A DNA stretch of 64,000 nucleotides from the NCBI GenBank assembly GCA_041838515.1, contig JBGYPP010000018.1, positions 25,034 to 89,033 of the forward strand, read 5' to 3'. Made by a program: the position numbers and the translations under genes. Source of the stretch: Acetatifactor sp. Its GTDB lineage: Bacteria > Bacillota > Clostridia > Lachnospirales > Lachnospiraceae. Numbering within the stretch: the first letter of the stretch is position 1; each line of letters starts with the position of its first letter. Below, piece after piece: positions 1,702 through 46,036 of this stretch. Under the pieces are notes generated by a model. It made no database searches. It was not told where the DNA came from and worked only from the letters and a program-made list of their open reading frames with translations.

Positions 1702-2343
1702 ATGGAACCGTTTTTTAGCATAATTGTGGTCAGTCTCAACCCCGGTGCGGGTCTGGAGCTGACACTGGAGAGTATATTTTCCCAGAGTTTTGGAAATTAC
1801 CAGGTGGTGCTAAAGGATGCGGTGTCCACTGACGGCTCTGTGGAGGCTGCCCAGGCCCGCTACGGCCGGGATGCCCGGCTGCTGGTGGAGCGGAGGCGGG
1901 ATGGGAGCATATACCAGGGCATGAATCAGGCGCTTGCTCTGGCCGTAGGGCAGTATTGGATTTTTCTCAACTGCGGCGACTGTTTTTATAGCAGAGAGGT
2001 GCTGGAGCTGGCCGCACGCAAGCTGGAGAAGAGCGGAGGTCCGGGCGTGCTGGCCTATGGAGATACGTTTATACGCTCGGCCGGAGTCCTGTCCAAGGCC
2101 AGGCCCGTCCTCGGGGATTTTGGCTTGTACAGGGGCCTGCCCTGCCATCAGTCCTGTATTTATCACAGGGATTTATTTGGTCAGAGGGGATATGCTGAGG
2201 AATTTGCCGTGCGGGGGGATTATGAGCACTTCCTGTGGGCGCACTATGTATATAAGGCCCGGCTGCTGTATCTGGATATGGCTGTATCCTCCTATGAGGG
2301 GGGGGGGATTCTCGGAATCCGCCGGGAACTGGGAGAGGGATAA
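1702..2343 (+). CDS. family 2 glycosyltransferase, apparently truncated by a frameshift in a G10 tract (the remainder reads on in the +1 frame to 2530)
   Basis: N-terminus FSIIVVSLNPGAGLELTLESIFSQSF...DGS is a GT2 signature. After the G10 run (2298-2307) this frame stops at 2343. The neighbouring frame continues GGGFSESAGNWERDKREHEQITAMYMP... and ends in an ATGA overlap with the next gene's start at 2527. Confidence 0.8.
   Translation: MEPFFSIIVVSLNPGAGLELTLESIFSQSFGNYQVVLKDAVSTDGSVEAAQARYGRDARLLVERRRDGSIYQGMNQALALAVGQYWIFLNCGDCFYSREVLELAARKLEKSGGPGVLAYGDTFIRSAGVLSKARPVLGDFGLYRGLPCHQSCIYHRDLFGQRGYAEEFAVRGDYEHFLWAHYVYKARLLYLDMAVSSYEGGGILGIRRELGEG
2298..2307 (+). repeat. homopolymeric G10 tract inside the GT2 coding sequence
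   Basis: Counted directly: ga-gggggggggg-att. Removing one G fuses ORF 1702..2343 to the open frame ending at 2530. Confidence 0.95.
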
Positions 2344-2526
2344 GAGGGAGCATGAACAGATAACGGCCATGTATATGCCGGCCTGGAAAACCCGCTGTTT
2401 TGGCCTGCTGTTAGCGCTGAGCCTGCCGGGCCTGCGTCGTCGGCTGTTTTCTAAAGGGCCGCTGGCACGTTGCTATGCGGGACTCAAAGGCCTTTGGTAC
2501 GGCCTGGGAAGAAAAAGGGAGGCAGA

Positions 2527-3858
2527 ATGAGAGTACTGTGGGTATGCAATATTATGCCGGCCATATTTTCCGCCAAGCTGGGAAGAAGGTCCAGCAACAA
2601 GGAGGGGTGGATAGAGGGGCTGCTGGAGGCCATATGGAAAAATAAAAAGGGGGAGGCTTTTTCCCTGGGCCTGGCCTTTCCCATGGAGGAGCAGGCCGGT
2701 ATGCTCAACACCACTTTTAGCATTCATTCCATGGCCATCACCTGCTATGGTTTCTATGAGGATCCCCAGGCCCATATCTATACACCGGGCCTGGAGGAGC
2801 GCATGGAGGCCATTATCCGGGATTTTTCTCCGGATATTGTGCATTGTTTTGGAACGGAATACGGTCATACGCTGGCGGCGGCCAGGGTATGGAAACGGCC
2901 GAACCGTCTGTTGATAGGCATACAAGGTCTGTGCGGCGTGTATGCCAAGGCGTATATGGCGGATCTGCCCCGGAGGGTGATTCGCAGGCGCACACTGAGG
3001 GATGTGCTGCGCAGGGACGGCCTGCTCCTGCAGCAGGAGAGGTATAGGTTGCGGGGCGAGATGGAGAGGGAGGCCATATCCCTCTGCGGCCATGTGGCCG
3101 GCCGCACGCATTGGGATAAGCGATATTCCCAGATCTACCAGCCCAGGGCCGTATACCACCACCTTGGAGAGAGCTTGCGGCCATGTTTTTACGAGGAGCA
3201 GTGGAGCCGGGAAAAGGCCATACCCTACAGGATATTTCTCAGCCAGGGAGATTATCCCATCAAGGGTCTGCACTACGCTCTGCTGGCCCTGCCCAGGATA
3301 CAGCAGGCCTATCCCCAGGCCCATCTGGCCGTGGCCGGCGCGCCATTGGTGAAGCTGGGCGATTTGGCCAATAGCTTGAAGAGAGGCTCATATGCCAAGT
3401 ATCTGGCCTATTTGATAAAAAAGTATCAATTAAGACGCAGCGTGGAATTTCTGGGCAGGCTGACAGCTCTGGAGATGCGGCAGGCCTACCTGGACAGCAG
3501 CGTATTCCTTTGCCCCTCCTCCATAGAGAATTCCCCCAATTCCCTGGGGGAGGCCATGCTGCTGGGCATGCCCTGCGTGGCAGCCAAGGTGGGCGGCGTG
3601 GAGAGCATGATGCGCCACGGTCTGGAGGGCCTGCTCTATGAGGGTTTTGATCCGGATGCGCCCAGTGAGGGCCGGGAGGAGGACCTGCTGGAGATCCGGG
3701 TGCAGGCTCTGGCGGATACCGTGATAGGGCTGTGGCAGGAGGAGGAGGCTCAGGCGGCCTACGCCTATAGGGCCAGGGAAAGGGCTTTAGAAAACCATAA
3801 TCCGCATAAAAATTTTTTGCGCCTGATGGAGATCTATACCCTGATGATGGGGAGCTAG
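2527..3858 (+). CDS. family 4 (GT-B, GT1/GT4) glycosyltransferase
   Basis: Starts MRVLWVCNIMP with a GGGAGG SD upstream. The C-terminal half carries the ENSPNSLGEAMLLGMPCVA (E-x7-E type) motif. The listed ORF start 2470 is probably too far upstream. Confidence 0.8.
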   Translation: MRVLWVCNIMPAIFSAKLGRRSSNKEGWIEGLLEAIWKNKKGEAFSLGLAFPMEEQAGMLNTTFSIHSMAITCYGFYEDPQAHIYTPGLEERMEAIIRDFSPDIVHCFGTEYGHTLAAARVWKRPNRLLIGIQGLCGVYAKAYMADLPRRVIRRRTLRDVLRRDGLLLQQERYRLRGEMEREAISLCGHVAGRTHWDKRYSQIYQPRAVYHHLGESLRPCFYEEQWSREKAIPYRIFLSQGDYPIKGLHYALLALPRIQQAYPQAHLAVAGAPLVKLGDLANSLKRGSYAKYLAYLIKKYQLRRSVEFLGRLTALEMRQAYLDSSVFLCPSSIENSPNSLGEAMLLGMPCVAAKVGGVESMMRHGLEGLLYEGFDPDAPSEGREEDLLEIRVQALADTVIGLWQEEEAQAAYAYRARERALENHNPHKNFLRLMEIYTLMMGS

Positions 3859-3871
3859 GGAGAGTAACCCT

Positions 3872-5035
3872 ATGGAGAGATGGTACTTCGTATCCAATTA
3901 TATGAATCATCATCAGATAGCCTTTTGCGATGCCATGTACCAAAGACTGGGGGAGGCCTTTGTCTTTGTGCAGCTGGAGGATATGGAGGAGCACAGGCGG
4001 CAGATGGGCTGGAGGGAGTATGAGCGGCCCTATATACGATATTGGCAGAAGGAGGCACAGGCCCTGGCAGGGGAGCTGCTTGCCGCCAGGCTGGTGCTTT
4101 TTGGCGGCAGCGATGAGGAGGAGGTGATCAGACCCCGCCTGGATAGGGGTCTGCCTACCCTGCGGTATAGCGAAAGCATATACAAAAGGGGGCGGTGGAG
4201 AGCGGTCAGCCCCAGGGGCCTGTGGAGAAAGTATCAGGACCATATTTGCCGCAGAAAGGATCCGGTGTACATGCTCTGCGCCGGCGCCAGAGCCGGCGGA
4301 GATTTTGGCCTGTTGGGGGCTTACCCCGGCAAGTTGTACAAATGGGGGTATTTTCCACCCTTTGTGGAGCAGGACATAGAGGCTCTGCTGGATGCCAAGG
4401 AGGGGCGCAGCCTGGGTAGGCCCAAAATATTGTGGGTGGGACGTATGATAGATTGGAAGCATCCGGAGTTGGCTTTGGAGGCAGCCGGGCGGCTGGCAGA
4501 TCTGGGGCTGGATTTTTCCATGGAGTTGGTGGGGCAGGGTCCCAGGCGACAGGCCTGCCAAGCCTGGGTGGACAAAAAAGGACTGGATAGAAGTATCGAA
4601 TTTACAGATTTTCAATCTCCAGAGGCCATACGGGTCAAGATGGAGAGGGCGGATATATTCCTGATGACCAGCGACCGGCAGGAGGGTTGGGGAGCCGTGG
4701 CCAATGAGGCCATGAACAGCGGCTGCGCGCTGGTGGCCAACAGCAGTGCCGGAGCCATACCCTACCTTCTCCGCTCGGGTATGGAGGGATATGCCTTTCG
4801 CAATGGGCAGGCGGCGGACTGTGCGGACAAGCTGGGCCGTCTGCTGACACAGGCAAAGCTGAGGGAGGATATGGGCCGGGCGGCCTATGGGCGAATACGG
4901 AGGCTGTGGAATCCCGGAGCCGCAGCGGATGCGCTGCTGGCGCTGGCCGGCTCTCTGGGGCTATGGCCGGTCTTGCCCGGTCTGGAGGCGGCCATAGCGG
5001 AGGATGGGCCCTGTTCCCCGGCTCCCTATATTTGA
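3872..5035 (+). CDS. family 4/1 glycosyltransferase
   Basis: 387-aa ORF with the C-terminal GT-B motif SDRQEGWGAVANEAMNSGCALVA. Sits in the EPS gene context. Confidence 0.75.
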   Translation: MERWYFVSNYMNHHQIAFCDAMYQRLGEAFVFVQLEDMEEHRRQMGWREYERPYIRYWQKEAQALAGELLAARLVLFGGSDEEEVIRPRLDRGLPTLRYSESIYKRGRWRAVSPRGLWRKYQDHICRRKDPVYMLCAGARAGGDFGLLGAYPGKLYKWGYFPPFVEQDIEALLDAKEGRSLGRPKILWVGRMIDWKHPELALEAAGRLADLGLDFSMELVGQGPRRQACQAWVDKKGLDRSIEFTDFQSPEAIRVKMERADIFLMTSDRQEGWGAVANEAMNSGCALVANSSAGAIPYLLRSGMEGYAFRNGQAADCADKLGRLLTQAKLREDMGRAAYGRIRRLWNPGAAADALLALAGSLGLWPVLPGLEAAIAEDGPCSPAPYI

Positions 5036-5046
5036 GGAATAAGAAT

Positions 5047-6030
5047 ATGCCAAGGATTAGCGTCATTGTGCCGGTCTACAACGTAGAGAGCTATCTAGAG
5101 GCCTGTATACGTTCTATAGCAGGTCAGAGCTTTGGCGATTGGGAGCTGTTGTTGGTGGATGATGGATCCACAGATGGCTCGGCGCAGATATGCTCTGGCT
5201 GGGCGGTCAGGGACAGCCGCATACGGCTATTGCAAAAGGAAAACGGGGGAACTTCCACAGCTCGGAACTGGGGATTGGCCCACGCCACAGGAGAGTATGT
5301 GTCCTTTGTGGACGGGGATGACTACATAGACCCGGAAATGCTGGAGCAGTTGTGGAGGGCGGTGGAGGAGCATGGAGCGGATATGGCCCAGGTGGGCCGT
5401 ATAGAAGAGACAGAGGACGGCAGGCGGCTGCCGGATATCTGTACTCCGCCGGAAGAAGAGCGCTGGGAGAGTGCTGAGGAATTTCTGCGGCAGCTTCTAC
5501 TGCACAAGGGGGATTGTTCCTTTTGTACCAAATTGACCCGCCGCAGCCTGTTGGCGGCCGAGGCTTTTCCCCCGGGCAGGCTGAATGAGGATTTCTACCT
5601 ATGCCTGGAACTGCTGCCCCGCATAGAGGCGGTGAGGCTGCTGTCCGGCCGCCACTACCATGTGCGTTACCGCCAGGGCAGCAATACCCGCCAGGGCGGC
5701 GGGGCGGGCTTTTCCCAGGTGTATATAGACAATGTGGACAATGCGCAAAAGGCCCTGGAGCTGTGCCGGGACCGTTATCCTCAGCTGTTGCCCATATGCC
5801 GCCGCTTTGGCGCATACCAGAGGCTGGATTATATGCTGCACATACCCCTGGGAGAGATGTCGGCGGACAATGTCTTTTTCAGGCGGACAGTGGCGGACAT
5901 GAGAAAGGGGTTGGCGGGCGTGCTGGCCAGCCCCTGGCTGGGCCTGCGGGAGAAGAGTTACTATGCCCTGCTGGCCCTATGGCCCCGGGGGATACGGCAC
6001 CTCCACGCCAGACTCAAGGGCTGGATTTGA
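5047..6030 (+). CDS. family 2 glycosyltransferase
   Basis: MPRISVIVPVYNVESYLEACIRSIAGQSF...LLLVDDGSTDGS...DGDD are canonical GT2 motifs. ATG 5047 was chosen inside listed ORF 4906..6030. Confidence 0.85.
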   Translation: MPRISVIVPVYNVESYLEACIRSIAGQSFGDWELLLVDDGSTDGSAQICSGWAVRDSRIRLLQKENGGTSTARNWGLAHATGEYVSFVDGDDYIDPEMLEQLWRAVEEHGADMAQVGRIEETEDGRRLPDICTPPEEERWESAEEFLRQLLLHKGDCSFCTKLTRRSLLAAEAFPPGRLNEDFYLCLELLPRIEAVRLLSGRHYHVRYRQGSNTRQGGGAGFSQVYIDNVDNAQKALELCRDRYPQLLPICRRFGAYQRLDYMLHIPLGEMSADNVFFRRTVADMRKGLAGVLASPWLGLREKSYYALLALWPRGIRHLHARLKGWI

Positions 6031-7227: not shown

Positions 7228-8490
7228 ATGGGGGTACAGAGCAGGTATGAGGAGGCTAAGGCCATCTATGCCGGACTGGGCATAGACACGGATAAGGCCA
7301 TAGAGAGTTTGAGAAAGGCGCCGGTGTCCCTGCACTGCTGGCAGGGGGATGATGTGCGGGGATTTGACCACGAGGGGGGATTGACCGGAGGCATACAGAC
7401 CACCGGCAATTATCCGGGCCGGGCGCAGACGCCCCAGGAGCTGTTCGCCGATATGGATAAGGTTCTGCGGCTGACCCCGGGCGCAAAGAAGATCAATGTA
7501 CACGCCTGCTACGCCATATTCGGCGAGGACGGCTTTGTGGATAGGGACAAGCTGGAACCCAGGCATTTCCAGGCTTGGGTGGATTTTGCCAAGGCCCGGG
7601 GGCTGGGTCTGGATTTCAATCCCACCTTTTTCTCCCATGAAAAGGCTGCAGACGGTCTGACTCTAGCCCATCCGGATCCCCAGATCCGAGCCTTTTGGAT
7701 AGAGCATGGAAAGGCCTGCATACGCATATCCTCCTATTTTGCCGAGGAGACGGGCATACCCTGCGTAATGAATATCTGGACAGGGGATGGATTTAAGGAC
7801 ATACCGGCTGACAGGATGGGCCCCAGGCTGCGGTACAAGGAATCTATAGAGGCCATACTGTCCGAACCCTTTGATTTTGCCATGGTAAAGCCCTGCGTGG
7901 AATCCAAGGTCTTTGGCATAGGTGTGGAGTCGTATACCGTGGGATCGGGAGAATTTGCGCTGAGTTTTGCCGCTGCCCATCCGGACAAGTGTATGCCTCT
8001 GATGGACAATGGCCATTATCACCCTACGGAGATGGTGTCTGACAAGATACCCGCTCTGCTGTGCTTCTATCCGGAGATCGCCCTGCATATCACCCGTCCC
8101 GTGCGCTGGGACAGCGACCATGTGGTGATCTTTGACGATGAGACAAGGGAGATAGCCAAGGAGATCGTGCGCAATGGCGCTCTGGAGAGGGTGCATATGG
8201 CGCTGGATTACTTTGACGCCTCTATCAACAGGGTGGCTGCCTGGGCGCTGGGCTTCCGTTCTTTCCAAAAGGCACTGCTCTTTGCGCTTCTGCAGCCCAA
8301 TGACAGGGCTAGGGAGCTGCAGGAGGGCGGCTGGTGGAGCCGGCTGATGGCTCTGGCGGAGGAGGCCAAATGCCTGCCCTTTGGGGATGTGTGGGAGTAT
8401 TACTGCCAGGTATGCCAGGTCAAGGGCGAGGCGGAGTGGTTTGCCGATGTGGAGGAGTACGAGAGGGAAGTGCTGTCTTTGAGGCAGTGA
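7228..8490 (+). CDS. rhaA: L-rhamnose isomerase
   Basis: 420-aa product. YEEAKAIYAGLGIDTDKAIESLRKAPVSLHCWQGDDVRGFD and ...MDNGHYHPTE... are RhaA-like. GGAAAGGAG SD before ATG 7228. Confidence 0.9.
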   Translation: MGVQSRYEEAKAIYAGLGIDTDKAIESLRKAPVSLHCWQGDDVRGFDHEGGLTGGIQTTGNYPGRAQTPQELFADMDKVLRLTPGAKKINVHACYAIFGEDGFVDRDKLEPRHFQAWVDFAKARGLGLDFNPTFFSHEKAADGLTLAHPDPQIRAFWIEHGKACIRISSYFAEETGIPCVMNIWTGDGFKDIPADRMGPRLRYKESIEAILSEPFDFAMVKPCVESKVFGIGVESYTVGSGEFALSFAAAHPDKCMPLMDNGHYHPTEMVSDKIPALLCFYPEIALHITRPVRWDSDHVVIFDDETREIAKEIVRNGALERVHMALDYFDASINRVAAWALGFRSFQKALLFALLQPNDRARELQEGGWWSRLMALAEEAKCLPFGDVWEYYCQVCQVKGEAEWFADVEEYEREVLSLRQ

Positions 8491-38615: not shown

Positions 38616-38683
38616 CCTTGGCGGCTTGGCGAACAGCTCTCCCCCATGGTACAATGCAAAAAAGGCCAGCGGCGGGAGGAGAT

Positions 38684-40612
38684 ATGCACAATTATTATCG
38701 TTTGCTCAAGGAACGTTTTCCCAAAAAGACGGCGGTGCTGACAGAGCTGATCAATCTGGAGGCCATACAGCATCTGCCCAAGGGTACAGAATTTTTCGTC
38801 AGCGACCTGCATGGGGAGTATGCCGCCTTTGACTATGTGCTGCGGCATGGATCTGGCAACCTCAAGGTCAAATTGCAGGAGTGGGCGCAGGAGGTGGGGG
38901 AGGAAAATCTGGAGGTGGATATAGACTCCCTGGCTCTGTTTATCTATTATCCGGAGAAGATGATGGAGAAAAAGGCCGCCTGCCTGTCCAAGGAGCAATT
39001 GGAGGATTTGCTGGAGAGCTACATACCCTCGCTGATACGGGTGGTCAAATTCGTGGGCAGCAAATATACCCGGTCCAAGCTGCGCAAGGCCATGCAGGCC
39101 GAATTTGCCTATGTGATGGAGGAACTGGTGGCCGAGGTGGACCGGCGGGAGGATAAGGCCGGGTATTGCAGCTCCATTCTTAAGAAAATACGGAATCTGG
39201 GCCAGTTGGACGAGCTCTTTGTCGCCCTGGCCAATCTGATACAGCACCTGACCATAGATCATCTCCATGTGCTGGGGGATATATACGACCGTGGAGCCCA
39301 TCCGGACCGCATAATAGAGCGCATAGGCCAGATGTCCAATGTGGATATACAGTGGGGCAATCACGATATTACCTGGATGGGAGCGGTGGCCGGCTCCGCG
39401 CTGTGCATGATCAATGTCATACGCATAGCGGCCAGATACAACAATTTGGCCCTGCTGGAGGACAGCTACGGCATCAATCTGCGGCGGCTGGTGGATTATG
39501 CGCTGAGCTATTACACGCCTCTGCCCAGCTTTGCGCCTGTGCTGGACGGAGCCAAGGTGGGGGAAAAAGAGCAGGATGCGCTGAACTGCCTGCAACAGGC
39601 CTGTGCGGTCTTGCAGTGGAAGCTGGAGTACCAGTGCATAGAACGCAGGCCGGATTTCCGTATGGGCAGCCGGCAGGTTCTGGCCCATATAGACTGGGAG
39701 CAAGGCTTGCTGCGCCGGGGAAACAAAACTTACGTTCTCGAAAATTGGAATCCCTGCCGTATAGATCCCCAGAATCCCGGAGCCCTGATGGGGGAGGAGG
39801 AGGCGCTGATCAACCAGTTGATTCACAGCTTTCAGAGCAGTGAGCGGCTGGTGCGGCATATGGACTTTCTGATCGAAAATGGCAGCATGTATCTGACCTA
39901 TAACAAGCAGCTGCTCTTCCACGGCTGCATACCCCTGCACGAGAATGGGGATCTCAAATCCCTGCGCATAGAGGGGAAGAGTTATAGGGGCAAGGAGCTG
40001 CTGGATTTTTATGAATATCATGTACGCAAAGGATACAGGCATCCGGAGCGGCGGGAGGATTTGTCCACGGATCTGTTTTGGTATCTATGGACGGGGGAGT
40101 GTTCCTCCCTCTTTGGCAAGGCTGCTATGACCACCTTTGAGCGCTATTATATCAGCGATGCCTCCACCCACAGGGAGGAGAAAAATCCTTATTATTCCCT
40201 GCGGGATGAGGAAGAGATCTGCGAGATGATACTGGCGGAATTTGGCCTGGGTCCGGGCAGCCATATCATCAATGGGCATACGCCAGTGATAGAGAGCAAG
40301 GGGGAGAGTCCTATCAAGGCCGGGGGCCGTATGCTGGTCATAGATGGGGGCTTTGCCAAGGCCTATCAGAAAAAGACGGGCAATGCCGGCTATACCCTGG
40401 TATTTAACAGCTATGGATTTCAATTGGTGGCGCACAGGCCCTTTACCGGTGTGGAGGATGTGCTCGCCGGGAATTGTGATGTGCTGTCCACCCAGCGGCT
40501 GGTGGAGTACTCTGACAGGCGCATACTGGTAAAAGACACCAGCATAGGCCAGAGGCTGGGCAGGGAGATACAGGATCTGGAGCATCTATACCTGCATTTT
40601 GAGGAGTATTGA
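38684..40612 (+). CDS. fbp: fructose-1,6-bisphosphatase class 3
   Basis: About 642 aa. ...FFVSDLHGEYAAFDYVLR...LGDIYDRG...INGHTPV... are class III FBPase metallophosphoesterase motifs. Confidence 0.9.
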   Translation: MHNYYRLLKERFPKKTAVLTELINLEAIQHLPKGTEFFVSDLHGEYAAFDYVLRHGSGNLKVKLQEWAQEVGEENLEVDIDSLALFIYYPEKMMEKKAACLSKEQLEDLLESYIPSLIRVVKFVGSKYTRSKLRKAMQAEFAYVMEELVAEVDRREDKAGYCSSILKKIRNLGQLDELFVALANLIQHLTIDHLHVLGDIYDRGAHPDRIIERIGQMSNVDIQWGNHDITWMGAVAGSALCMINVIRIAARYNNLALLEDSYGINLRRLVDYALSYYTPLPSFAPVLDGAKVGEKEQDALNCLQQACAVLQWKLEYQCIERRPDFRMGSRQVLAHIDWEQGLLRRGNKTYVLENWNPCRIDPQNPGALMGEEEALINQLIHSFQSSERLVRHMDFLIENGSMYLTYNKQLLFHGCIPLHENGDLKSLRIEGKSYRGKELLDFYEYHVRKGYRHPERREDLSTDLFWYLWTGECSSLFGKAAMTTFERYYISDASTHREEKNPYYSLRDEEEICEMILAEFGLGPGSHIINGHTPVIESKGESPIKAGGRMLVIDGGFAKAYQKKTGNAGYTLVFNSYGFQLVAHRPFTGVEDVLAGNCDVLSTQRLVEYSDRRILVKDTSIGQRLGREIQDLEHLYLHFEEY

Positions 40613-40632
40613 CAAAGAAATGCGGATAAGGC

Positions 40633-40684
40633 AAAAAAACCGCCTAGGGATTCCGTTGCATTAGGATCCCAAGCGGTTTTTTTG
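40633..40684. terminator. bidirectional intrinsic terminator between fbp and pflA
   Basis: aaaaaaaccgc...gcggttttttt with an internal stem; A-run and T-run flank it. Confidence 0.7.
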
Positions 40685-40735
40685 TTATGCTATCGTCAGA
40701 TAGGCTGGTAATGCCCGTAGAATTCTCCAGCTGGC

Positions 40736-41521
40736 CTAAAGATTGCCCTCTGCGCTCTCCTGGGCGCGGCGCTTTTTGATGCCCAGCAGTATCTGTCTTT
40801 TCTTGGCCGGTATCAGCTCCTTGTCCATGGGAGGCGTATCCTTTAGGGGATATTCCATGCCCAGCTGCTCATACTTGGCCGTGCCCATGGTGTGGTAGGG
40901 CAGCACATCCAGGGCTGTCAGATTGGGGAACTGGCCAATGAAATACCCCAGAGCAAAGAGATCCTCGTTATCGTCAGACCAGCCGGGTACTACCACGTGG
41001 CGCACCCACATATCCACCTTGCGGGAGGCCAGATAGGCGGCAAAGGCAAAGATATTTTTGTTGGGCTGGGCCACCAGCTTTTCGTGAGTTTCCGGATCCA
41101 TGTGCTTGATATCCAGCATGACCAGATCCGTCAGCTCCATTAGCGTATCCAGCTTCTTGATCAAAAAGGCATTGGCCGGATTGTAGGTGATGCCGGAGGT
41201 GTCTATGCAGGTGTGTATGCCCTTGGCCTTGGCCAATTGAAACAGGGCCGTGACAAAATCTATCTGCATCAGAGGTTCGCCTCCGGTGACTGTGATGCCG
41301 CCGCCTTTGTAGAAATTGATATTGCGCATATACTGTTCGATGATATAGGCCGGCTCCATCCAGGTGCCGCCCTCCACATCCCAGGTGTCCGGGTTGTGGC
41401 AGTACAGACATCGCATGGGGCAGCCTTGGAGGAATACGACAAAGCGCACTCCGGGGCCGTCCACAGTGCCAAAGCTCTCCAGGGAATGTACCCTGCCTTG
41501 TATGGGCTTCGTATCGGGCAT
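40736..41521 (-). CDS. pflA: pyruvate formate-lyase activating enzyme (radical SAM)
   Basis: ESFGTVDGPGVRFVVFLQGCPMRCLYCHNPDTW (CX3CX2C) and GGGITVTGGEP. Confidence 0.95.
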   Translation of the reverse strand: MPDTKPIQGRVHSLESFGTVDGPGVRFVVFLQGCPMRCLYCHNPDTWDVEGGTWMEPAYIIEQYMRNINFYKGGGITVTGGEPLMQIDFVTALFQLAKAKGIHTCIDTSGITYNPANAFLIKKLDTLMELTDLVMLDIKHMDPETHEKLVAQPNKNIFAFAAYLASRKVDMWVRHVVVPGWSDDNEDLFALGYFIGQFPNLTALDVLPYHTMGTAKYEQLGMEYPLKDTPPMDKELIPAKKRQILLGIKKRRAQESAEGNL

Positions 41522-41540
41522 AAGGCTCCTTTCTCAAGCA

Positions 41541-41572
41541 AAAAGGCGAAGGCGCAGCTAGGGCAGCGCCTC
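41541..41572 (-). terminator. possible attenuator/partial terminator between the radical-domain gene and pflA
   Basis: On the minus strand: ggaggcgctgccctagctgcgccttc followed by gccttttt. Confidence 0.3.
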
Positions 41573-41609
41573 CGTCCTTTTGTCAAAAGATACGGCGTCC
41601 GGTGATGGA

Positions 41610-41849
41610 TTAAACGGACTCGTGGAAAGTGCGGTTGATAACATCCGTCTGCTGCTCGGGAGTCAGCTTGATAAAATTTACGGCATAGCCGGAAACACGG
41701 ATGGTCAGCTGGGGATACTTCTCAGGGTGCTTCTGGGCATCCAGCAGCATATCCCTGTTGAGTACGTTTACGTTCAGGTGATGGCCGCCCTGCTCGGCGT
41801 AACCATCCAACAGAGCCACCAAATTATCTACCTGTGCGGTGTTGTTCAT
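41610..41849 (-). CDS. free-standing glycyl-radical domain protein (GrcA-like; corresponds to the C-terminal about 70 aa of canonical PflB)
   Basis: 79 aa: ...[59 protein letters not shown] contains the RVSGYAV glycine-radical motif. Has its own AGGAGG SD 6 nt before the ATG. Confidence 0.9.
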
Positions 41850-41885
41850 ATTTTACCTCCTATAGTTGTATGCCCTGTAATGGCA

Positions 41886-42086
41886 TCAGCGGTAGTCGTC
41901 CAGGCCCTCTTGCAACGTGGGGACAGAGCAGGCCAGGGGGGTGCGTGAGCAGTCATTGCACCCCATGGTCTGGGTGGAAACCTGGTTGGAACTCTCATCG
42001 GTTTCCACATTGATATGGCCTACGCCCTTTTCCACATCCGCATCCAACATGGCGACCAACTGGTCTATGGCATTGGGATTGTTCAT
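41886..42086 (-). CDS. 66-aa hypothetical protein: its N-terminus is paralogous to the start of the glycyl-radical protein, and its tail contains three Cys
   Basis: GGAGGG SD 5 nt before the ATG. MNNPNAIDQLVAMLDADVEKGVGHINV aligns with [27 protein letters not shown] of the next ORF. The tail ...TMGCNDCSRTPLACSVP... has no RVSGYA motif. Confidence 0.6.
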   Translation of the reverse strand: MNNPNAIDQLVAMLDADVEKGVGHINVETDESSNQVSTQTMGCNDCSRTPLACSVPTLQEGLDDYR

Positions 42087-42101
42087 ATGTTCCCTCCAAA
42101 C

Positions 42102-44165
42102 TTAGGGCCTGGACTCCTCAACCTCGGTCAGATCCAGATCCAAGCTCAAATCACTGCTAAATACCTTCTCCTCCTTGCCCAAGGCGCCGGGTATGATGGT
42201 AAAGGTATTGGAGATGCCGTCCTGCGCATCCTGGAAAGGCAGCTTGGATACGGTGGCCAGGGAGGCGATGGCGCCGTGGGTATCGCGGCCGTGCATAGGG
42301 TTGGCGCCGGGTGCGAAGGGCTGGCCCTTCCTGCGGCCGTCAGGCGTATTGCCGGTGGCCTTGCCATATACCACGTTGGAGGTAATGGTCAAAATGGAGG
42401 TGGTGGGAACGCCCTTCCTGTAGGTGTGGTGCCTGCGTACGGCGGTCATAAAGCGGTGTACGATGTCCTTGGCTATCATATCCACCCTGTCGTCGTCGTT
42501 GCCGTACTTGGGGAAATCGCCGGTGGTCTTGAAGTCGGTGATTACGCCGTCATCATCACGGATAACCTCTACCTTGGCATGCTTGATGGCGGAGAGGGAG
42601 TCGGCCACGATGGAGAGGCCGGCGATACCGGTGGCGAAATACCTCTTCACATCCCTGTCGTGCAGGGCCATCTCAGCGCGCTCGTAGCAGTACTTGTCAT
42701 GCATATAGTGGATGATGTTCAGCGTGTTTACATATACATCTGCCTGCCACTCTATCATATCGGTGAACTTCTGCATTACATCGTCGAAGTCCAGCACATC
42801 CCCCTCTACAGGGCGGAAGCGGGGACCTACCTGCTTCTTGCTCACCTCGTCCACGCCGCCGTTGAGTGCATAGAGCAGGCACTTGGCCAGATTGGCGCGG
42901 GCGCCGAAGAACTGCATTTCCTTACCCACCTTCATGGAGGATACGCAGCAGGCTATGGCATAGTCGTCGCCATGGGTCACGCGCATCATATCGTCATTCT
43001 CGTACTGCAGGGAAGAAGTCTCTATGGACATCTTTGCACAGTAACGCTTCCAAGCCTGGGGCAGCCTGGTGGACCACAGCACGGTCAGGTTGGGCTCGGG
43101 GGAAGGGCCCAGCGTGGTCAGCGTATGCAGGAAACGGAAGCTCATCTTGGTAACCAGGGAACGTCCGTCTATGCCCACGCCGGCCAGGGACTCGGTAACC
43201 CATACCGGATCGCCTGCAAAAATCTGGTTGTACTCGGGTGTGCGAGCGAATTTGATCAGGCGCAGCTTCATAACGAAGTGGTCTACAAACTCCTGAATCT
43301 GCTGCTCGGTAAAGGTACCATTGGCCAGATCCCTCTCAGCGTAGATATCCAGGAAGGTGGAGGTGCGGCCCAGGGACATAGCGGCGCCGTTCTGCTCCTT
43401 TACTGCGGCCAGATAGCCGAAGTAAGTGGCCTGTATGGCCTCCTGCACGTTGGTGGAGGGCTTGGAGATATCAAAGCCGTAGGAGGCGGCCATCTGCTTC
43501 ATCTGCTTCAGGGCCACGATCTGCTCGGAAATCTCCTCACGCAGACGGATGACATCGTCTGTCATCACACGGCCGGTGGAATCCTTTTGGTTGTTCTTGT
43601 CCTCGATCAGACGGTCTATGCCATAGAGGGCCACACGGCGATAGTCGCCTATGATGCGGCCGCGGCCGTAGGCATCCGGCAGACCGGTGATAATATGGGA
43701 GGAGCGGCAGGCGCGCATATCCTCGTTGTAGGCGTCAAAGCAGCCGGCATTGTGGGTTTTTCTGTGGGTGGAGAAGAACTCGCTGATCTCCGGATCCACC
43801 TCATATCCGTTGTCCGAGCAGGCCTTCTCGGCCATGCGGATGCCGCCGTAGGGCTGCAAGGAACGCTTGAAAGGCTTGTCGGTCTGGAAACCCACGATGG
43901 TTTCCTTGCTCTTGTCCAGATATCCGGGGCCATGGGATACGATGGTGGAAATGATCTTGGTATCCATGTCCAGAACGCCGCCGGCATCCCTCTCCTGCTT
44001 TTGTAGCTCCAGAACCTGAGCCCACAGGTCATTGGTATTTTGGGTCGCCTCGGCAAGGAAAGACTCATCGCCGTCGTACGGGGTGTAGTTCCTCTGGATG
44101 AAATCCCGTACGTTGACGTCGTGCTCCCACTTGCCGCCTACAAAACCAGTCCATTCCGTTCTCAT
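42102..44165 (-). CDS. pflB: formate C-acetyltransferase (pyruvate formate-lyase) catalytic core lacking the C-terminal glycyl-radical domain
   Basis: 687 aa from ATG 44165 (AGGAGG SD). PFL-like throughout (...RVALYGID..., ...[10 protein letters not shown]... active-site Cys pair, ...[10 protein letters not shown]...[20 protein letters not shown]), then ends in the acidic tail [19 protein letters not shown]. Confidence 0.9.
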
Positions 44166-44377
44166 TGCAGGTCGCCTCCTATGTTTGGGAAATGCTAGTA
44201 AACAGTGTCTTGTATACAATCTAATTATAGGTAGAAAAAGCGGGCCAGTCAATGGATATTCTGTACTTTTTGCAATACATGACAAAAAAATATCAGTAAA
44301 AAATTGGGCAGGCCTTATATAGCCCCGCTTGCCAATCCACAGCCTATGGATTAAAGTAATAAGGAGAAAATGCGGGG

Positions 44378-46036
44378 GTGGAAACGGTGGCGCTTTTTGG
44401 ACAAACAAGGCATGGCTTGGGCAGATTATGGCTGAGAGCATGGGCGTGGCTGGGCGGCATTGCGGAGCCGGCGGCGCGTTGGGGCATGGCCCTGGCAGGC
44501 CTCCCGGTGTGGATTTTTCTGTGTTGGTACAGTTTTCGTTACAGCTATCTGGAGGGAGTGCATGTACCGGAGAAGCTAAGCCTGGTCAAGGACAGCATGG
44601 GCCGCCATATGCTGGGCATTTTGGCTCTGGCGCTGGCGTGGGGGGGGCTGCTGCGGCTGGAAAGGCGCTGCTCCAAGGCTCGGCTGGAACTGGGGGCGAG
44701 GAGTTTGGCTCTGCTGGCTGTGGCCTGGCATCTGGCCTGGGGCCTGTGGTGGATCTATTCCTCAGATAAGGTGCCGGGAGGGGATCAGGCCTTTCTCTAC
44801 GGCGGCGCCAGCTACCTGTTGGAGGGTTCCAGGACATTTTTGGGTCTGGGGGGATATCTGGAGATGTACCCCCATCAGCTGCCCGCAGTGTTTGTCGTGC
44901 AGTCCGTATTCTCCCTGGTGGGCACTTACCAATATCCTTTTTTGCAATTGTGCAATGTGCTGTTTGCCGCTGGTACCGTGGGTCTTGCCTATGGCCTGCT
45001 GGAGGCCTGGGGGGCAGGCTTTGCGGCCAAGGCGGCATATGCGCTTCTGGCCCTGGGCCTGCAGCCCCTGGTGTATTACACCTCCTTTGTCTATGGGGAG
45101 TTGGGCTTTTGCTTCTTTGCGCTGGCAGCCCTGTGCTGCTTTGTCTATTTGGACAAAAAGGGGCGGCCGGCCATACTGTCGCTGATGGGAATTTGTCTGT
45201 GGCTGATGTGGGCGCTGAGACCGGCTGGCCGCATATTCCTCCTGGCCTTTTGTCTATGCCTTGGCCTGTGGGCGCTGAGGCGGGGGAGGCTGGGGGTTCT
45301 GGCTCTGGCCCTGTTCTTTTTCCTGATACCCAATATCACGCTCTGGGGCCTGCGAGCCTATTACTACCCTCCCGGCTCGGCTGAGTATTATACCGGAGGC
45401 ATGCCGGTAGAGGGCTGGCTGGCGCTGGGCATAGAGGAATCGCCCATGGGCCCCGGCTGGTACAACCACGATGTAGTGCGCAATTATTACCTGGCGGAAT
45501 GTGACCCCTATGAGGCGGCCAAGATCTATAGGCAGCAGATAGAGGCTCGTCTGGCCTTTTTCCGGGACTATCCCGGGGAGGCCGGACAGTTTTACAAGGA
45601 TAAGATATTGAGTCAGTGGATAGCGCCTCTGTATCAGGGCCTGTTCTTTGGCTCTCAGCCGGACCAGGGCAAGCAGATTCCGGAGGGAAGTCTGTTGGCC
45701 TATGTATACAGCCACGGCGGGCAATTGCAACAGTGGGCGGATGTGTGGCAGTTCCTGGTCTATGGCGGAGTCCTTTGCTTTTTTGCGGGCCTGCCGGCGC
45801 TGGGGCGCAGATCCATACCCCTGCTGGTTCTGCCTATGGCCCTGTTGGGCACCTTTGTGTTTTCCCTTTTCTGGGAGGCCAAGGCCAGGTATATTTTTCC
45901 CAGCTATGTTTTGATGTATCCCATGGCGGCCCTGGGGCTGGAGGCGGCCTTTGGCCTGCTCCAGTCGGGCTGGCGCAGATGGTTTTGGAAGGGGGCGGAG
46001 GGTGGAAAAGCTGAGCGTAATCGTGCCTTGCTTTAA
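44378..46036 (+). CDS. GT-C fold membrane glycosyltransferase (ArnT/PMT, GT39/83-like)
   Basis: 552-aa polytopic membrane protein. The early extracytoplasmic loop ...[19 protein letters not shown] resembles the GT-C acidic loop. The start is uncertain: GTG 44378, while the AAGGAG SD at 44361 is closer to an out-of-frame ATG at 44370. Confidence 0.55.

Follow-up and report, generated by a model that had tools for sequence, protein, structure and literature searches.

Introduction

Among the glycyl radical enzymes of gut microbiomes, pyruvate formate-lyase (PFL) is the most abundant, and the Lachnospiraceae are major gut fermenters. Free-standing glycyl-radical modules, such as GrcA/YfiD and Y06I of phage T4, serve as spare parts for a complete PflB. 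In Escherichia coli, oxygen cleaves PflB at Gly734, and GrcA/YfiD, made radical by PflA, then replaces the damaged domain (PMC8683613). An engineered PFL(1-695) combined with YfiD has wild-type activity once it is activated, but binding and activation are poor, and the recruitment of YfiD depends on residues 696-733 of the cleaved E. coli enzyme (Andorfer et al. 2021, PMC8683613). In vivo, E. coli PflB-G734A together with GrcA makes formate (Kammel et al., PMC12338860). These experiments establish trans-complementation: where PFL cannot hold a radical itself, a separate radical domain can make up for the loss (PMC8683613, PMC12338860). Here we describe a locus in a 64,000-nucleotide stretch of an Acetatifactor sp. 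genome (family Lachnospiraceae; GenBank assembly GCA_041838515.1, contig JBGYPP010000018.1, positions 25,034 to 89,033; hereafter the window) in which PFL is encoded in three pieces: a 687-residue catalytic core, a 66-residue protein that we call the middle protein, and a 79-residue glycyl-radical module, GrcA3, all on the same strand as the activase gene pflA. We conclude that this locus is probably a genuine and evolutionarily fixed split PFL operon.

An earlier sequence-only reading of the locus had recognised the 687-residue core and its tail, the 79-residue open reading frame (ORF) with its AGGAGG and radical motifs, and pflA, and all of these are present where it placed them. It took the system to consist of two pieces parted by a spacer of about 250 nt; those 252 nt hold an ORF at 41886..42086, and this 66-residue gene lies between core and grcA3 in nearly all cases, so that the system has three pieces. 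The same reading knew of no described split PFL. Our literature search likewise found no paper on GrcA3, on a naturally split PFL or on the middle protein; the 79-residue protein itself, however, already bears a family name, NF038360 GrcA3. That name covers the small protein alone, and we found no record of the truncated partner PFL or of the intervening third gene. A June 2026 review of glycyl radical enzymes describes YfiD-type spare parts only, and the formate-lyase class has no known accessory subunit (PMC13450708). A glycyl radical enzyme with an autonomous radical module is thus already known; what is new is that the arrangement is fixed as the normal state and includes a third component.

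PFL sequence divided between a core and a radical module

On the minus strand (40736..44252) the order is a promoter-like site, the core gene, the middle gene, grcA3, a hairpin and pflA (Table 1). The core scores 1090.1 bits against the PFL equivalog model TIGR01255 (cut-off 994.2), over model positions 2-670 of 744, and Pfam recognises in it the PFL-like domain and the first half only of Gly_radical (positions 1-51 of 106). The glycyl-radical loop RVSGYAV is not on the core polypeptide and is carried by the separate 79-residue chain. The sequence-only reading had described the core as lacking a radical domain; this holds for the radical glycine, which is missing, but not for the N-terminal half of Gly_radical, which the core retains. 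The motif IACCVSS occupies core residues 404-410, and within it C406 and C407, which correspond to C418 and C419 of E. coli PFL, are invariant in a 17-species alignment.

The C-terminus of the core is equivalent to residue 680 of E. coli PflB. After ...ALGKEEKV the core carries an acidic tail of 19 residues in which hydrophobic and acidic residues alternate. Relatives have a shorter, conserved tail, ALGKEDQVFAGDIELDLNK followed directly by the stop, which can be written (V/I)F(A/S)GD(I/L)(E/D)(I/L/V)DL(N/S)K and is shared by over 100 protein clusters and by 80 of 80 genomes; the tail of the window core is a longer, divergent variant of it, and a tail of the same kind occurs in a lineage of 34% GC. 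The tail may form a strand and clamp the partner subunits. The 118 clusters closest to the core measure 678-690 residues, and there is no full-length PFL among its best 120 relatives. Two relatives of the truncated core, P0123 (805 residues) and P0124 (821 residues), exceed the usual 679 residues by about 125-140 while keeping termini like those of the others, which implies a putative internal insertion.

The missing part is found on GrcA3. This protein carries HLNVNV as well as RVSGYAV, and its gene has its own AGGAGG Shine-Dalgarno sequence and ATG. Against NF038360, "autonomous glycyl radical cofactor GrcA3", it reaches 158.0 bits over positions 2-77 of 78, borderline at a cut-off of 158; operonic relatives score 157.7-168.8 bits, and close relatives are named GrcA3 in NCBI records. 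It fails the models for GrcA/YfiD (TIGR04365, 99.7 bits versus 170) and GrcA2 (NF008341, 104.6 versus 145). It matches positions 50-106 of 106 in Pfam Gly_radical and positions 664-743 of TIGR01255; core (2-670) and GrcA3 (664-743) thus tile the 744-position PFL model without a gap, which places the break at E. coli residues 680/681. Residues 7-78 of GrcA3 align to E. coli PFL 682-758 and residues 19-78 to YfiD 67-126. GrcA3 G54 aligns with G734 of PFL and G102 of YfiD and is invariant in 32 homologues; we infer that it carries the radical. The activase that would install it is encoded nearby: pflA matches TIGR02493 at 296.4 bits (cut-off 231.75). In two GrcA3 entries, P0001 (103 residues) and P0006 (111 residues), some 20-30 residues are directly repeated within the protein; each entry comes from one short contig, and the duplications are probably assembly artefacts.

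Table 1. The putative split PFL operon: features and their coordinates in the window
Feature	Position	Strand	Basis
Promoter-like site, TTGACT-17 nt-TATAAT	44224..44252	-	11/12 consensus positions; consensus match only
PFL catalytic core, 687 residues plus stop, ATG at 44165	42102..44165	-	TIGR01255, Pfam
Codons of the catalytic Cys pair, core C406-C407 in IACCVSS	42945..42950	-	Translation
Acidic C-terminal tail of the core, 19 residues	42105..42161	-	Translation
Middle gene, 66 residues, proposed accessory subunit	41886..42086	-	Conserved ORF, GGAGG 7 nt before ATG
N-terminal 30 residues of the middle protein, homologous to the initial helix and strand of GrcA3 (PFL ~677-709)	41997..42086	-	hhalign
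Cys motif of the middle protein, TMGC(N/T)DCSRTPLACSVPTL(Q/H)(E/Q)GLDDY	41892..41969	-	Near-invariant in alignment
grcA3, 79-residue autonomous glycyl-radical module	41610..41849	-	NF038360, Pfam; AGGAGG before ATG
Predicted radical glycine codon, G54 in RVSGYAV	41688..41690	-	Alignment to G734 of E. coli PFL
Terminator-like hairpin (A-run, GC stem, U-run), grcA3/pflA intergenic	41538..41584	-	RNA fold
pflA	40736..41521	-	TIGR02493; Pfam Radical_SAM and Fer4_12

Distribution and selection

Is the split real? In the window the ORFs for the core, the middle protein and GrcA3 are all in frame with one another and are parted by stop codons alone (TAA, TGA, TAA). This would fit a split that is an artefact of assembly or sequencing or a nonsense mutation of recent date, or one that is healed by readthrough, by an intron or by protein splicing. 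The wider distribution of the operon speaks against each of these. Assembly error, about which the sequence-only reading had cautioned, is contradicted by the core-66-79-pflA arrangement being identical in two NCBI assemblies and four Logan contigs, that is, by the same sequence in six independent contigs. Furthermore, when one genome per species was scanned, at least 571 genomes proved to carry the middle gene. We surveyed operon layout in the best 80 of these species genomes. The order truncated core (~679 residues), middle gene (~67 residues), grcA3 (~80 residues) was found at 80 of 80 loci, with pflA next in most, so that the truncated core with an adjacent radical mini-gene, which the sequence-only reading had seen at this one locus, recurs in every genome inspected. 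The record titles of these 80 name Lachnospiraceae, Acetatifactor, Kineothrix, Lachnoclostridium and similar, and two of them (strains 526-35 and YSD2013) are not marked as metagenome-assembled genomes (MAGs). A distant member of the middle family, from the lineage of 34% GC, lies in the same four-gene operon. One rumen MAG, RGIG8400, holds two copies of the three-piece operon on different contigs (L074 and L085).

The shared frame of the window proved to be accidental. In a comparison of 78 species the ORFs stand in random frames to one another (21 of 78 and 24 of 78 in frame), and the core ends in the strong stop codon TAA in 76; on this ground readthrough is rejected. Every ORF is equipped with a Shine-Dalgarno sequence and an ATG of its own, and the intervening segment encodes a protein under purifying selection. 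A search of 40500..45000 with Rfam at E up to 1 returned 0 matches, to an intron, a riboswitch or any other RNA family. Recoding and a split by a mobile element (group I or II intron, intein, readthrough) were considered as candidates and rejected on the Rfam result and the lack of a conserved in-frame arrangement. Assembly error, recent pseudogenisation, readthrough and introns are excluded, and the broader idea that the split is spurious or is mended in the cell, protein splicing included, is hardly conceivable.

Purifying selection acts on all four genes, as judged by the ratio of non-synonymous to synonymous polymorphism (pN/pS). The core is the most constrained (pN/pS 0.118, 54 species), followed by grcA3 (0.156), pflA (0.23) and the middle gene (0.26, 81 species). 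Taken with the conserved layout, these values support a split that is ancient and selected.

The 66-residue middle protein

The 252 nt between the core and grcA3 ORFs hold the middle ORF with its own GGAGG Shine-Dalgarno sequence. A search of a large protein collection gave 1011 clusters of this protein at 90% identity; among the 120 listed, lengths are 61-75 residues, there is no Pfam domain, and the source names given are all "hypothetical protein". An exhaustive HMMER search gave 224 representatives at 50% identity, and among the 150 listed almost all are short and none is a fusion to a PFL-sized protein. Invariant residues of the family use every synonymous codon; for example, Leu is encoded by all six codons and Ser by both TCN and AGY. 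The middle ORF is a real, conserved gene under purifying selection.

The protein has two parts. The first 30 residues follow the consensus M..IDDLVAMLD....GVGHINV and resemble the beginning of GrcA3: in a profile comparison with hhalign, columns 1-33 of both families align with a probability of 94% (E 1.5e-7). Similarly, the hidden Markov model (HMM) of the middle family matches residues 669-697 of full-length PFL (E 2e-4), and residues 5-29 match the first 28 positions of the GrcA3 model, at a sub-threshold 18.7 bits. The similarity found by hhalign is confined to these 30 residues, and the protein has no Pfam match, the glycyl-radical domain PF01228 included. The C-terminal part carries no radical-glycine fingerprint and has no detectable similarity to the C-terminal half of GrcA3. 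Its cysteine motif, in which 24 columns do not vary among 55 sequences, is the most conserved part of the protein, and the wider family keeps DC...AC.VPTL..G.D. There are three cysteines in the window protein and two in much of the family, and a conserved His is present. AlphaFold2 applied to the middle protein alone predicts a helix at residues 4-19 with the rest disordered (predicted local distance difference test, pLDDT, 55.6). No relative was found in Pfam, NCBIfam or the PDB, where the best hit of a profile search is a chance match (E 1.5).

Small cysteine-bearing proteins (60-90 residues) are likewise encoded beside the catalytic subunit in benzylsuccinate synthase (beta and gamma) and 4-hydroxyphenylacetate decarboxylase (gamma), where, as here, they could modulate how the radical domain behaves. 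Unlike those subunits, with which it shares no sequence similarity and which bind a [4Fe-4S] cluster through four cysteines, the middle protein has two to three and is derived from the radical domain itself. Benzylsuccinate synthase and 4-hydroxyphenylacetate decarboxylase keep their radical domain as part of the large subunit. Membership among the iron-sulfur accessory subunits was rejected for lack of a four-Cys cluster motif and of any sequence or structure similarity.

These features leave room for a regulator or redox sensor. Its cysteines would respond to oxygen or oxidants or hold a metal, and the protein would act as a protective switch that closes or frees the radical-domain slot or quenches the radical. 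The two to three conserved cysteines and the conserved His fit such a role, the mimicry of the docking half of GrcA3 means that the middle protein could compete with it, and the protein is predicted to be disordered on its own. There is a precedent in benzylsuccinate synthase, in which small Cys-rich subunits control radical-domain dynamics (PMC12590467). Against this, the protein resembles no known iron-sulfur, zinc or redox family (Pfam, NCBIfam, PDB), and about half of the wider family has Ser in place of the first Cys. A sensor also overlaps with the placeholder or adaptor role proposed below, and no evidence separates the two. We think a dedicated sensor unlikely.

Layout variants, stand-alone copies and phage-borne copies

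Layout variants were counted in the best 80 metagenome loci that contain GrcA3 (L166-L245). Three-piece operons account for 45 (four of them recognisable by the family HMM only), and a further 4 have the middle gene and grcA3 with the core off the contig. The order core-pflA-grcA3 without a middle gene occurs at 2 loci, grcA3 stands alone with no pfl gene within reach at 19, and the class is undeterminable at 10. The number of full-length PFL loci is 0.

Stand-alone copies have varied neighbours. For example, one group lies directly downstream of a Crp/Fnr-type regulator (L007-L012, 6001-6246) and another group adjoins the spoIIIA operon (L160-L162, 4001-4243). Stand-alone and operonic grcA3 are 85-97% identical and therefore cannot be separated as paralogue clades.

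Such copies raise the question of whether GrcA3 is a spare part only, with a full-length PFL elsewhere in the genome and the truncated core a decaying or repurposed remnant. The NCBI family name implies a GrcA-like repair role, and the existence of grcA3 away from pfl genes agrees with it; moreover, our search for a PFL covered 64 kb of this genome. However, the core is the operon's most constrained gene, retains the Cys-Cys pair, passes the PFL equivalog cut-off, and has a conserved new tail and is kept with pflA in at least 80 species. Nor is there a full-length PFL in the best 120 core relatives or in the best 80 GrcA3 metagenome loci. We therefore regard the spare-part explanation as quite improbable and favour a core that works with GrcA3.

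Rarely, the middle gene is missing and the core tail is extended, as in two lineages. In L163-L165 (core 1892-3985) the tail ends in ISGDLAVELCEGCCNPVTQSAEPDYGTAE before the stop and has the Cys motif CEGCCNPVTQSAEPDY; in L246/P0124 (L246 core 3001-5466) it ends in LEPDCACCEPNLSVDEAE before the stop, with the Cys motif DCACCEPNLSVDE. Divergent middle proteins contain DC..GN.ACCQPTE followed by acidic residues, which resembles these core-tail motifs; the shared pattern [AG]CC.P is rare, with about 8 chance hits among some 25,000 ORFs. This fusion-type evidence gives moderate support to the view that the C-terminal module of the middle protein acts at the C-terminal tail of the core.

GrcA3 is also found in viruses. 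On IMG/VR viral contigs (GC 26-44%, up to 333 kb) we found 16 short GrcA3-type genes (L102-L115, L117, L118), of 78-81 residues by the best start codon, which score at or slightly below the GrcA3 cut-off. They are distinct from the YfiD/Y06I type of 120-150 residues, present on 41 other phage contigs. One of them, on a 230-kb viral contig (L109:5004-5237), lies directly 3' of nrdD-nrdG and is followed by genes for a T4-type RNA ligase and polynucleotide kinase. The scan of viral contigs found no middle gene.

Proposed working of the split enzyme

What is the likely division of labour among the pieces? Judging from the conserved sequences, we think it quite likely that the locus encodes a functional split PFL whose radical is supplied in trans. 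The 687-residue core would provide the barrel, the substrate sites and the Cys-Cys pair, with no radical glycine of its own, and GrcA3 would contribute in trans the part equivalent to E. coli 681-759, made up of the final helix and barrel strand, the Gly loop and the C-terminal helix. We propose that PflA puts the radical on Gly54 of GrcA3 and that docked GrcA3 hands it to the core Cys, as E. coli GrcA does with damaged PflB. Oxygen-cleaved GrcA3 could then be swapped out while the 77-kDa core stays; since the radical piece is a free 9-kDa subunit, a cleaved copy would be replaceable without a new 77-kDa core, and extra GrcA3 copies, chromosomal or phage-encoded, could plug into the same core. 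The stand-alone and phage-borne copies make such cheap repair after oxygen cleavage more plausible, and repair of this kind may be one benefit of the split.

Comparison with the E. coli systems helps to place this proposal. As with E. coli PflB and GrcA/YfiD or T4 Y06I, a small free RVSGYAV protein, here presumably activated by PflA, would serve a PFL body without a working radical domain. In contrast to E. coli, where PFL is complete and GrcA acts after damage, the core described here never has a radical domain. GrcA3 also differs from YfiD, in that it lacks the 60-residue disordered N-terminus and has a helix equivalent to PFL 682-693, and a third protein is present that has no counterpart in the E. 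coli PflB/GrcA pair. Like engineered PFL(1-695) with YfiD and PflB-G734A with GrcA, the enzyme would be a two-chain PFL with its radical in trans. Compared with the laboratory-made PFL(1-695), the natural core stops 15 residues sooner (680/681) and gains an acidic tail, and a separate middle protein carries a copy of a 681-709-like segment.

The middle protein has a GrcA3-like docking helix and strand, with a cysteine motif in place of the Gly loop. In position and extent it resembles, by analogy, the 681-733 stub that E. coli uses to recruit its spare part, and it may fill the recruiting role of E. coli residues 696-733. We suggest, tentatively, that it is a placeholder or adaptor: it would sit at or beside the vacant radical-domain slot and the acidic tail of the core, with whose alternating residues it may pair, and would steady the radical-less core and govern the entry and exchange of GrcA3. 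The most complete picture that we can draw from these elements is of a "cartridge" PFL, in which a long-lived radical-less core accepts disposable 9-kDa GrcA3 subunits, chromosomal or phage-encoded copies being interchangeable, while a 66-residue mimic of the radical domain guards or occupies the slot and controls loading. This full picture is possible, though rather less likely than not.

Several observations bear on the proposal. The search for a second or full-length PFL covered the 64-kb window and found none; on that scope, the obligate division into chains that the sequence-only reading inferred is a possibility. Other observations weigh against the proposal. The middle protein and GrcA3 both carry the last barrel strand, and the barrel fits only one. 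When the three window ORFs were fused through their stops into a chain of 848 residues and modelled from a shallow alignment, mean pLDDT was 35.6 and no usable complex resulted. PFL(1-695) binds YfiD poorly in vitro, and truncation by itself need not make a core a good partner; by analogy, the natural system may need the core tail or the middle protein for partnering with GrcA3. The middle-family HMM does not match the two-piece core tails significantly, and the likeness of their Cys motifs is short and was noticed post hoc. Finally, the two core-pflA-grcA3 loci (L235 and L238) have neither a middle gene nor a Cys-bearing tail, their cores ending in GDLDADDLGLDIDDLIKLQQ before the stop; split operons of this form mean that the middle protein is not universally required. 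The tail end of L235 and L238 resembles the IDDLV helix that opens both the middle protein and GrcA3.

Implications

With the split fixed in hundreds of Lachnospiraceae species, the textbook picture of a single-chain enzyme would fail for a large share of the pyruvate-to-formate flux in the gut. The operon also offers a natural test system for radical-domain recognition, activation by PflA, domain insertion and repair of oxygen damage, for which engineered E. coli fragments have served so far. The unannotated 66-residue family, with more than 1000 clusters, directly suggests itself as an accessory or regulatory subunit of a new kind; if the cartridge arrangement is true, the formate-lyase class would have in this family its first accessory subunit, and the postulated E. 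coli 696-733 "recognition element" a natural counterpart. Likewise, the phage-borne GrcA3 genes suggest an auxiliary metabolic function, and under the same arrangement phages could sustain host fermentation through GrcA3. There is also a consequence for annotation: the core is called "formate C-acetyltransferase" though it is unable to carry the radical, and the middle gene is called "hypothetical".

Regulatory signals and neighbouring genes

About 58 nt separate the promoter-like site from the ATG at 44165 downstream of it, a position that favours the start of the 687-residue core over that of a 779-residue ORF. In the grcA3/pflA intergenic region, the fold of 41522..41612 has a free energy of -34.9 kcal/mol (z-score -3.1), and 0 of 200 shuffled sequences were as stable. 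A simple terminator scan did not flag the hairpin it contains, which is likely a terminator or attenuator and could keep expression of pflA below that of the three structural genes.

In several relatives (L013-L018, ~7462-7680), a gene for a 56-residue ferredoxin with 4Fe-4S (Fer4) Pfam matches lies directly 3' of pflA; this gene, which is absent from the window, is a candidate electron donor for the activase. In the window the next gene after pflA, on the opposite strand (38618..40612, +), encodes a class 3 fructose-1,6-bisphosphatase.

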